Shown here piece by piece: positions 8,971 to 10,580 of a stretch of 64,000 bases of DNA. Position 1 is the stretch's first letter. Each line of letters begins with the position of its first letter. Location of the stretch: the IMG/VR virus record IMGVR_UViG_3300005613_000004. The stretch is one strand, 5' to 3'. The notes beneath the pieces are model-generated. The model had not been told where the DNA came from. It saw nothing but the letters and a program-made list of their open reading frames with translations, and did not search any database. The DNA comes from a virus. The position numbers and the translations under genes were made by a program.

Positions 8971-8999
8971 TTGACTATATAGAGTATAGGGTCTATAAT
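8971..8999 (+). promoter_or_regulatory. Sigma70-type promoter driving the riboswitch module
   Basis: TTGACT (8971-8976), 17 bp, TATAAT (8994-8999). Predicted +1 near 9005-9006, just before the aptamer. Confidence 0.85.
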
Positions 9000-9005
9000 A
9001 GACTC

Positions 9006-9263
9006 ATCGTTCATCACCTTCGGGTGACGCAAGTAAGTCGCGGAACGGAGCGTTCATCTTATGATTGAAATACTATTATTGGCACATATGTATCAGAAAC
9101 CTCAAATGACTTGTCAGCAAGTCATCGAGGTGGCAGAAACTGTGATGGAGTCTCCATATATGACTCCCAAAGATAAGAAAAATTTTTTCTTTAACTTATT
9201 TGGTAATCACATGAATATGGATTGTATCAAAAAATCATAGGACGCAAACGACTGAAGGAACGG
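9006..9263 (+). ncRNA. Glutamine-I (glnA-motif) riboswitch-like RNA, double/nested architecture
   Basis: P1 CGUUC/GAACG occurs twice. P2 UCACC-UUCG-GGUGA, junction C-GCA, E-loop AGUA(9032-35)/GAA(9254-56), P3 AGUCG/CGACU. This matches the known glnA aptamer pattern CGUU..P2..GxA-AGUA..GAA-G..AACG. Confidence 0.8.
9061..9240 (+). CDS. 59-aa ORF nested inside the riboswitch P2 loop
   Basis: Hand translation: MIEILLLAHMYQKPQMTCQQVIEVAETVMESPYMTPKDKKNFFFNLFGNHMNMDCIKKS*. It is below the ORF-track size cutoff. Confidence 0.65.
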   Translation: MIEILLLAHMYQKPQMTCQQVIEVAETVMESPYMTPKDKKNFFFNLFGNHMNMDCIKKS

Positions 9264-9322
9264 AACTCGGATCACCCTTAAGGGGTTAAAGGAGAAAAAT
9301 CCATTCTTTTAGGAGACCTACA

Positions 9323-9487
9323 ATGAACACACTTAATCTCATCAAAAAAAAGATTGAAAGATCAGCACGTCTGCATGATGCACAAATTCTTCACACTACA
9401 TATCGTGGTGTAAAGTATGAGTGTAAGCAAGAAGATAACGAATTGCATGGCACTTTCTGTTATCGTGGTCAAAATTATACGAAATAG
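9323..9487 (+). CDS. DUF4278-like / GS-inactivating-factor-like YRG peptide (54 aa)
   Basis: AGGAG RBS at 9311-15. MNTLNLIKKKIERSARLHDAQILHTTYRGVKYECKQEDNELHGTFCYRGQNYTK has two YRGxxY motifs. Confidence 0.75.
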   Translation: MNTLNLIKKKIERSARLHDAQILHTTYRGVKYECKQEDNELHGTFCYRGQNYTK

Positions 9488-9522: not shown

Positions 9523-9550
9523 AGGGGGGAATTGATATCCCTCCTTTTTT
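9523..9550 (+). terminator. Rho-independent terminator
   Basis: AGGGGGGA-ATTGATA-TCCCTCCT hairpin followed by a T run. Confidence 0.8.
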
Positions 9551-9767: not shown

Positions 9768-9930
9768 AATAAAGAAATCAAAAGAACTCGTAAAATTACT
9801 TGAAAGACTTATAAAGCAAGATCATCTTTATACTGAAGAACGTATTATTGAAATGAAAAATACTCTTCGTAGTGCAAAAGAAGAGATTGAAAAAATGGAA
9901 AAAGAAAACTCTAAAGGATTTGGAAAATGA
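9751..9930 (+). CDS. Hypothetical coiled-coil protein
   Basis: ORF overlapping both neighbours; ATG at 9751 chosen. Confidence 0.65.
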   Translation: MDTQTKIKKSKELVKLLERLIKQDHLYTEERIIEMKNTLRSAKEEIEKMEKENSKGFGK

Positions 9931-10580
9931 ATGTAAAATTAATTAGTGTTACCCCTGATGCTGAAAAAACTATGGGGTATGTTGCGAGGGTATCAAACCC
10001 AAGTAATCAAACAAATCCTAAGGTTGCTGGATTGCTCAAATATTGTGTGAATCATCAACACTGGTCTGTATTTGAGCAGGCATTTATGACACTTGAGATT
10101 GAGACCACAAGAGGTCTGGCAGCACAAATTTTGCGACATAGAAGTTTTACATTTCAAGAGTTTTCTCAAAGGTATGCTGATAGTTCTTTATTAGGAGATA
10201 CTATTCCTCTCCCAGAACTTCGTCGTCAGGATACAAAAAATCGTCAAAATTCTATTGATGATATTGACCCCTTTGTTAAACAGAAATATGAGATTTTGAT
10301 GCAACATCATTTTAGAGATGCTATGGCATTGTATCAAAAAATGCTTGATGAGGGTATTGCAAAGGAATGTGCTCGTTTTGTACTTCCTTTGGCAACACCA
10401 ACACGTCTTTATATGAGTGGATCTTGTCGTAGTTGGATTCATTATATTGCACTTAGGGAAAAATCAGGAACTCAAAAAGAACATATGGATATTGCCAAAG
10501 AATGTAAAAAAATCTTTGCCGAGCAATTTCCAATTTGTGCCGAAGCACTTGGAGGTTTGGATGTAGATTGGGTATTGTGA
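9927..10580 (+). CDS. thyX: Flavin-dependent thymidylate synthase
   Basis: ThyX signature RHRSFTFQEFSQRYA; 'HQHWSVFE'; 'ECARFVLPLAT'. Confidence 0.96.
   Translation: MNVKLISVTPDAEKTMGYVARVSNPSNQTNPKVAGLLKYCVNHQHWSVFEQAFMTLEIETTRGLAAQILRHRSFTFQEFSQRYADSSLLGDTIPLPELRRQDTKNRQNSIDDIDPFVKQKYEILMQHHFRDAMALYQKMLDEGIAKECARFVLPLATPTRLYMSGSCRSWIHYIALREKSGTQKEHMDIAKECKKIFAEQFPICAEALGGLDVDWVL

Follow-up and report, generated by a model that had tools for sequence, protein, structure and literature searches.

Can a complete protein-coding gene be housed within the ligand-sensing domain of a riboswitch, and, if it can, what would become of sensing when the gene is translated? The question is raised by a short locus in a T4-like cyanomyovirus (IMG/VR record IMGVR_UViG_3300005613_000004), of which a stretch of 64,000 nt, hereafter called the window, was analysed. 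A preliminary description of this DNA had placed an ORF inside a hairpin loop of a glutamine riboswitch, with its start codon base-paired to its own stop region. The locus matches 381 phage records, and in relatives two small CDS are annotated at this position (syn9 gp197 and gp198, 'T4-like GC 430/937').

Organization of the locus

The features of the locus are collected in Table 1. In the reading that we favour, and which we hold as a whole to be probable rather than secure, the locus is a single short transcription unit running from the promoter at 8971-99 to the terminator at 9523-45, and its leader is a predicted double glutamine riboswitch of the glnA-RNA type ahead of an IF17-like (DUF4278) gene. 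Within the glutamine-sensing fold would lie a second, nested gene, whose translation and the folding of the RNA would exclude one another, with expression of the downstream gene coupled to the outcome. The context of the promoter -10 element is kept in relatives, and the transcript should start a few nt upstream of the first CGUUC.

Table 1. Coordinates of the predicted elements of the riboswitch unit in the window.
Feature	Position	Strand	Remarks
Sigma-70-type promoter	8971..8999	+	-35 at 8971-76, -10 at 8994-99; 11/12 consensus matches
Outer P1, 5' strand (CGUUC)	9008..9012	+	fits the Rfam RF01739 consensus
Outer P2 hairpin, short, ORF-less	9014..9027	+	compensatory differences relative to L013
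Outer junction CGCAAGUA, proposed 5' strand of shared P3 (AGUCG, 9036-40) and C9041	9028..9041	+	
Inner P1' hairpin (GAACG 9043-47, GAG loop, CGUUC 9051-55)	9042..9056	+	formed in the MFE fold
Inner P2' stem, 5' strand	9057..9066	+	contains AUG 9061-63
Nested gene, 59 codons and UAG	9061..9240	+	open frame, codon-position signature, dN/dS, alignment
Inner P2' stem, 3' strand	9233..9242	+	contains UAG 9238-40
Inner junction CGCAAA, 3' strand of shared P3 (CGACU, 9249-53), GAAG, outer P1 3' strand (GAACG, 9258-62)	9243..9262	+	
Switching sequence CUGAAGGAA	9252..9260	+	can pair within the aptamer or, alternatively, with the pre-SD element; MFE partner 9304-12
Pre-SD element (9304-12) and, overlapping it, the downstream gene's Shine-Dalgarno AGGAG (9311-15)	9304..9315	+	
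Downstream gene, 54 aa	9323..9487	+	syn9 gp198 family (phrog_545), DUF4278/IF17-like
Intrinsic-terminator-like hairpin followed by U-run	9523..9545	+	end of unit

A little downstream of the riboswitch unit is a 217-aa ORF (9927-10580) with a ThyX-type RHRSF..QE.SQRY motif (flavin-dependent thymidylate synthase); in relatives, td or talC are similarly placed. Elsewhere in the window, ARAGORN finds a 90-nt tRNA-Ile (UAU) at 32083-32172, which was missed by the Rfam tRNA model at its gathering score and which adjoins three ordinary tRNAs.

A protein gene in the hairpin loop

Re-extraction of the ORF from the loop of the inner hairpin gave the same boundaries as first described, i.e. an ATG at 9061-9063, a TAG at 9238-9240 and a product of 59 aa. 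When IMG/VR was searched for exact copies of the RNA's 22-nt 3' core, at least 120 contigs matched, and 127 loci were listed. In 110 of these listed loci there is an insert of 147-196 nt that has the same 5' strand, carries an ATG at its start and is in frame with the core. Nine others have a plain hairpin of 16-31 nt in place of the insert, and the remainder are truncated or variant. One check proposed at the outset was whether homologous loops are open frames, and they are: of the 101 unique homologous inserts taken from IMG/VR, every one keeps the nested frame open, the other five frames being open in only 0-3 of 101 each. Entropy at codon positions 1, 2 and 3 of these inserts is 1.06, 0.56 and 1.40, respectively, and insert lengths preserve the frame with the core. 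The window's own subfamily comprises 12 sequences of 42-97% identity, with a median dN/dS of about 0.20 (dS being saturated), and invariant Cys and Glu columns are present in alignments A1-A4.

From its open frames, codon-position signature and dN/dS, the nested ORF is, as far as comparative sequence data can tell, a genuine protein gene under purifying selection. The opposite reading, a non-coding structured RNA loop in which the ORF is accidental, could draw on the loop interior folding better than shuffled sequences (z -2.65 in the window, mean -2.85 across tested inserts, although the downstream ORF does so too) and on the window protein being without a Pfam or PHROG family match, but it is contradicted by the 101/101 open frames, the codon-position pattern, the dN/dS of 0.2, the conserved protein columns and the profile matches, and its probability is negligible. 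The ORF also differs from the leader peptide of an attenuator, in which sequence matters only via regulatory codons, in that the protein is conserved and has a predicted four-helix fold.

Both the nested (9061-9237) and the downstream (9326-9484) ORFs fold better than dinucleotide shuffles, with mean z of -2.85 and -2.19, respectively, across relatives. Excess structure in the ORF interior was considered as a folding aid and set aside, as the gap between -2.85 and the -2.19 of the control is too small and the data are non-independent.

Identity and topology of the riboswitch

The 5' unit of the window (9008-9047) scores 30.1 bits against the RF01739 model (E 1.8e-4), below the gathering threshold of 35, and the Rfam scan gave no RF01739 match for the ORF-bearing unit of the window. 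ORF-less relatives with identical cores, in which both hairpins are short, score 43.6-46.4 bits, above the gathering score, while Rfam misses the loci that carry an ORF, one of which is nearly identical to the window. The failure of Rfam to recognize the ORF-bearing unit is put down to the 176-nt insert and not to the core. Both cores have P1 strands that align to the Rfam consensus (5' strands at 9008-12 and 9051-55, 3' strands at 9043-47 and 9258-62). Covariation in P2 is seen at pair 4 of the inner stem, in the replaced stem of locus L183 (see below) and in the compensatory differences of the outer P2 relative to locus L013, with which the 5' half of the window is collinear. The position is also that of a leader, with the promoter just upstream and a DUF4278-like gene downstream. 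The helix names and the presumed ligand pocket used here follow the Rfam consensus and general background on the class. The glutamine-II riboswitch (Downstream-peptide motif, RF01704) was considered and rejected, as against a threshold of 33 bits it reached 24.4 in the window and 25.9 in L013, in both cases below RF01739 on the same stretch.

How the two units may be arranged is suggested by the Rfam alignment of L013, in which the first 5' half joins the last 3' half and the second unit appears as an insert inside P3. Applied to the window, this nested reading, already implicit in the term 'inner P2' of the preliminary description, gives an outer P1 (9008-12/9258-62), a shared P3 (9036-40/9249-53) and an inner P1' (9043-47/9051-55). 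No local P3 was found in the window; going by the Rfam alignment, the partner of 9036-40 is 9249-53, on the far side of the inner unit. Variants of the shared P3 are one-sided A-to-G changes that keep a G-U pair (on the 3' side at 14 loci, on the 5' side at 4), and no double compensatory change was seen among the loci compared. Five loci (L134, L140, L141, L148 and L155) form a core class with GCCGACU in both units, the canonical sequences being AGUCG and CGACU, and this variant class does not obviously fit a shared helix. Overall, the nested topology is, short of proof, better supported than a tandem arrangement; the ORF hairpin is identical under either.

It could be argued that insertion of the gene destroyed the aptamer, and that the flanking pieces are decaying remnants that no longer sense anything. 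The blindness of Rfam to ORF-bearing units and the demanding long-range closure of a 166-nt loop would be compatible with such a relic, but the 5' and 3' pieces have been kept to the nucleotide in more than 100 loci despite saturation of synonymous sites in the ORF, and both the covariation of the stem and the in-frame insert lengths speak against decay, so that we regard a relic as very improbable.

Among 185,579 bacterial species genomes the 22-nt core was found in only 3 MAG contigs, and there was no sign of a host version. One of these contigs (L163, JBJBBP010000001.1), assigned to a Synechococcus MAG, is of phage size at 194 kb and carries the phage-type core; its size suggests a mis-binned complete cyanomyovirus. 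The L013 contig, with its ORF-less double glutamine riboswitch, also carries a PhotoRC-II RNA (RF01717, 57 bits) at L013:1021-1116.

Pairing of the start and stop regions

The stem that encloses the nested ORF (9057-9066/9233-9242) is found as first described, with ten contiguous pairs of which one is G-U. In the window, the stem takes in the whole AUG, paired to CAU, together with the U and A of the UAG. MFE and centroid folding of 9000-9330 both recover the 10-bp stem, which has a pair probability of 0.9-1.0 in the isolated window unit and a mean base-pair probability of 0.8 over 107 units. Native arms pair at -12.3 kcal/mol and swapped arms at -9.6 kcal/mol; beyond the shared 5-bp base the values are -5.3 and -4.2 (p = 2e-4, uncorrected for relatedness). 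By these comparisons of sequence, the arrangement is beyond chance.

A further check proposed at the outset was whether start/stop pairing is conserved across the family, and this holds in part. Across 99 inserts, stem pairs 1-4 are close to 100% paired, with pair 4 covarying (C-G 72, U-A 21, U-G 5), and the A of the AUG is paired in 85. The U and G, on the other hand, are paired in register in only 40/99 and 33/99, respectively, and the whole AUG is paired in just 23 of the 99 inserts. In addition, the stop codon is outside both stem and core in L183 and L022. The variable position of the stop and the unconserved pairing of the AUG make selection for start/stop pairing as such doubtful. What is invariant in the alignments is an AUG within the 5' strand, 3-5 nt past a P1-type strand; a stop codon within the stem is common and not universal.

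Two divergent loci illustrate the range of arrangements. In L183 the stem is 11 bp long and of wholly different sequence, with the AUG fully paired, and the nested ORF ends about 60 nt upstream of the 3' stem strand. The spacer between this stop and the 3' strand has its own hairpin, and the nested ORF of this locus (L183:505-800; truncated by the gene caller) has a clear signal-peptide-like N-terminus. In L181 the nested ORF crosses the whole 3' half in another frame and stops at the UAG of the downstream SD element. At this locus (L181:35-265) the stop is 12 nt upstream of the downstream AUG, and the core sequence CUGAAG is changed to CUAAAG, a perfect match to its CUUUAG pre-SD element.

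The amber codon and the DAND tail

Past the amber codon of the window, the frame continues as D-A-N-D-stop (9241-9255) through the conserved core. The ending '...WDAND*', which the preliminary description gave for small cyanophage ORFs, proved to be real, as UGG followed by DAND and UGA occurs in 75 of the 101 unique inserts, and the TAG of the window is position-homologous to the TGG of these relatives. Codons found at this position in the 101 inserts are TGG (75), TAG (8), AAG (6), CAG (6) and GAG (2). The choice of codon follows stem pair 4, C-G accompanying UGG and U-A accompanying NAG; with U at pair 4, UAG is the sole codon that also keeps the A of the AUG paired. The amber codon arises because the complement of the stem is read in frame, with U at pair 4 giving UAG and C giving UGG. 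On this sequence evidence the amber is what the stem dictates, and C at the same pair gives the WDAND proteins of most relatives. The DAND tail, similarly, is no more than the translation of the invariant RNA core in this frame, and is dispensable.

Occasional decoding of UAG 9238, which would give a 64-aa protein with a DAND tail as in relatives, had been suggested as a possibility. Four open codons do follow the UAG, ending at the same UGA as in WDAND relatives, but the invariant RNA core would keep this tail open in any case, so that it says nothing in favour of read-through. Each of the 12 sequences in the window's subfamily terminates at TAG, sister lineages have sense codons or TAG at the same site, and the residue there is variable (W, Q, K, E or stop). 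There is no suppressor among the 4 tRNAs (Ile, Met, Val, Leu) of the 64-kb window, in which TAG also ends other long ORFs (5 of 54). Read-through is, then, hardly to be expected.

Slots and the proteins they encode

The two hairpin loops do behave as slots, as proposed, and all four combinations were observed: both empty; first empty and second with an ORF (the window); both with ORFs (syn9 gp196 and gp197, and many contigs); and first with an ORF and second empty (L018). The outer P2 of the window is such an empty slot, and gp196-type ORFs fill the same slot in syn9 and many others. In first-slot ORFs, too, the start codon belongs to the 5' strand and the stop codon to the 3' strand or the core.

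The further proposal, that the slots accept exchangeable cargo, is not borne out. Profile comparison gave 86% for the window type against the WDAND type and 87% for WDAND against the 64-aa type (a value raised in part by the tail they have in common), and 52% and 32% in comparisons to the first-slot family. A common architecture is also evident, in which a hydrophobic N-terminus is followed by a Cys at about position 12-25, then by helices and by a further Cys close to the C-terminus. As all of the encoded proteins look like members of one superfamily, this is not a free cargo slot; the profiles and the shared architecture point to a single diverged superfamily of small proteins, for which the likeliest history would be duplication of a hairpin-plus-ORF module, with losses.

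The nested protein of the window has the hydrophobic N-terminus previously noted, conserved Cys residues at C18 and C55, and an AF2 model with four helices (pLDDT 72). A word-based homologue search found a single near-identical protein, and an exhaustive profile search found 24 relatives, several of which have the RNA-encoded DAND tail. Among these relatives of the window type are classical signal-peptide-like N-termini as well as DAND tails, and from such N-termini, seen in the relatives only, the nested protein is possibly exported. The window protein had no PHROG match at E <= 0.01, while syn9 gp197 matches phrog_504 at 1.3e-30. The single Pfam row, PH_FAN (20.2 bits, below cut-off), was taken as a chance match. 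A Foldseek search of the AF2 model against PDB returned nothing below E = 3, and the ESM Atlas returned unnamed viral clusters only, at 0.8, which is chance level.

Of annotated proteins, the closest in kind are syn9 gp197 (T4-like GC 430, phrog_504) and gp196 (phrog_6471), which occupy the same slots, are of the same size and share the hydrophobic N-terminus and two Cys. In hhalign comparison with the window subfamily, the gp197 type reached 86% and the gp196 type 52%. The window protein differs from both in having no direct PHROG match, and in ending at a UAG without the WDAND tail.

Translation signals and the downstream gene

An SD-like GGAG (9047-50) is located in the inner P1' hairpin, 10 nt upstream of the nested AUG, a spacing at the long end of the usual range. 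The linker GAG that completes this motif is present in 120 of 128 ORF-bearing units and in 2 of 12 empty units, an association of linker with slot occupancy that has an odds ratio of 75 (Fisher p = 4e-9, lineages not being independent).

In front of the downstream gene, nearly every locus has a pyrimidine-rich pre-SD element whose sequence, with C/U alternation, complements the core segment, and in the MFE fold of the window 9252-60 pairs with 9304-12. The switching sequence at 9252-60 also holds the UGA that terminates nested ORFs of the WDAND type. The 54-aa downstream protein belongs to phrog_545 (E 6.7e-30) and matches PF14105 (DUF4278) at 22.6 bits, under the cut-off of 25.3. The protein (9323-9487) has two YRG-type motifs. 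DUF4278 has been tied to glutamine riboswitches, and in cyanobacteria these switch on IF17-like genes, i.e. they are of ON polarity (PMC6212724). From the phrog_545 match and the near-cut-off DUF4278 match, the downstream gene is a candidate for a phage IF17-like regulator of the host glutamine synthetase.

Proposed competition between folding and translation

It was originally argued that glutamine binding would lock away the nested start codon, and that translation would melt the aptamer. The geometry agrees with this, in that initiation at 9061 and the folded aptamer should be mutually exclusive. A 30S subunit at AUG 9061 would occupy the 5' strands of P1' and P2', and at the far end of the ORF a ribosome terminating at 9238, or in relatives at the UGA, would sit on the 3' strand and the core. 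Translation of the nested gene and the glutamine-binding fold should therefore exclude each other. From the same geometry we infer a competition between folding and translation that is coupled to the downstream IF17-like gene; ligand binding, exclusion in vivo and the polarity of the output are likewise predictions.

The two states may be envisaged as follows. In the closed fold, stabilized by glutamine, the nested AUG would be hidden, and 9252-60 would be drawn off the pre-SD element at 9304-12, turning the IF17-like gene on. In the open fold, the nested gene would be translatable, and the downstream SD would be masked except for transient unmasking by terminating ribosomes. As the UAG of the window halts ribosomes 15 nt before the UGA type, a weaker transient opening would be expected here. 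Closure of the 166-nt loop (176 nt between the strands of the conserved 5-bp stem base) may be slow in vivo relative to ribosome loading.

Carried further, the arrangement could be a two-output, translation-gated riboswitch, in which the open state yields the nested two-Cys protein and the closed state the IF17-like regulator, and in which ribosomes moving along the nested gene provide a second input, able to veto or reset sensing, the module having been duplicated and diversified across cyanomyoviruses. We offer this fuller version tentatively, as something that may be true but is rather less probable than its negation.

The chief rival to the favoured reading is that a real gene and a working riboswitch merely share a site: the loop would be a permissive location within reach of the same early promoter, and any interference between the two would be tolerated and unselected. 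This fits with several of the observations above. Both slots can be empty with the riboswitch and downstream gene kept, the empty versions being canonical RF01739 matches; pairing of the whole AUG is not conserved; the stop may be in the stem, in the core, 60 nt upstream or in the downstream SD; and the DAND tail can be dispensed with. Against it, every subfamily and both slots have the AUG within the stem, 3-5 nt past a P1-type strand. The presence of the SD-like GGAG, which overlaps the inner P1', goes with occupancy of the slot, and most ORFs stop on a UGA within the very segment that masks the downstream SD. Physical exclusion would also follow from ribosome footprints regardless of selection. 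We consider such passive cohabitation unlikely, though it is the alternative to be taken most seriously, and retain the reading in which nested translation, folding and the downstream gene are coupled.

Comparison with known systems

The type 1 glutamine riboswitch (RF01739), as in the leader of Synechocystis gifB/IF17 (PMC6212724), is among the closest known systems. The P1 sequence and the junction/E-loop core are alike, the RNA in both cases precedes a DUF4278 (IF17-like) gene as part of its 5' leader, and the potential pairing of a core segment with the ribosome-binding region in the phage locus fits translational control of the glutamine-ON kind. The phage locus differs in having two interlaced cores, with the second unit inside P3, and in that one or both P2 hairpins enclose a complete protein gene, to which the family model is blind. 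Tandem glnA RNAs are similar in having two ligand-sensing cores per leader, expected to sharpen or combine responses. They have been published as side-by-side units, whereas here the better-scoring reading is nested, a helix is possibly shared, and the hairpins are coding.

Group I introns of T4-type phages carry homing-endonuclease ORFs in peripheral loops. There too, an ORF is looped out from a hairpin of a structured RNA, distant halves pair, and translation and folding can interfere. In the present case, however, the RNA is a predicted metabolite sensor rather than a ribozyme, the start and stop codons are inside the stem, and the encoded product is a small two-Cys protein, neither a nuclease nor a mobility factor. 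In trp and erm leaders, and in the long-range masking of ribosome-binding sites in RNA phages, movement of ribosomes on an upstream ORF remodels the pairing of a downstream ribosome-binding site. In the phage locus, by contrast, the product of the upstream ORF is not a sensor peptide but a conserved protein that has evolved under purifying selection, and the competing structure would be a ligand-binding aptamer.

Full-text literature searches returned cyanophage glutamine riboswitches as list items only, along with mentions of tandem glnA RNAs. No ORF inside an aptamer is described in the literature searched, and long P2 inserts might be mentioned in Ames & Breaker 2011 or Ren et al. 2015.

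Implications

Riboswitch aptamers are usually treated as compact non-coding domains, and both family models and annotation assume as much. Hundreds of abundant marine phages have a predicted sensor of the present kind, with conserved halves that lie 180-450 nt apart around one or two nested genes, and such sensors escape standard scans. Surveys that forbid long inserts will undercount such riboswitches, and 'hypothetical' genes such as syn9 gp196 and gp197 gain an overlooked regulatory context. If the competition is real, ribosome occupancy and a metabolite would jointly set the fold of the RNA, so that one sensor would have two reciprocal protein outputs. The downstream gene being similar to IF17, an inactivating factor of glutamine synthetase, such an arrangement would bear on how cyanophages read the nitrogen status of their hosts.
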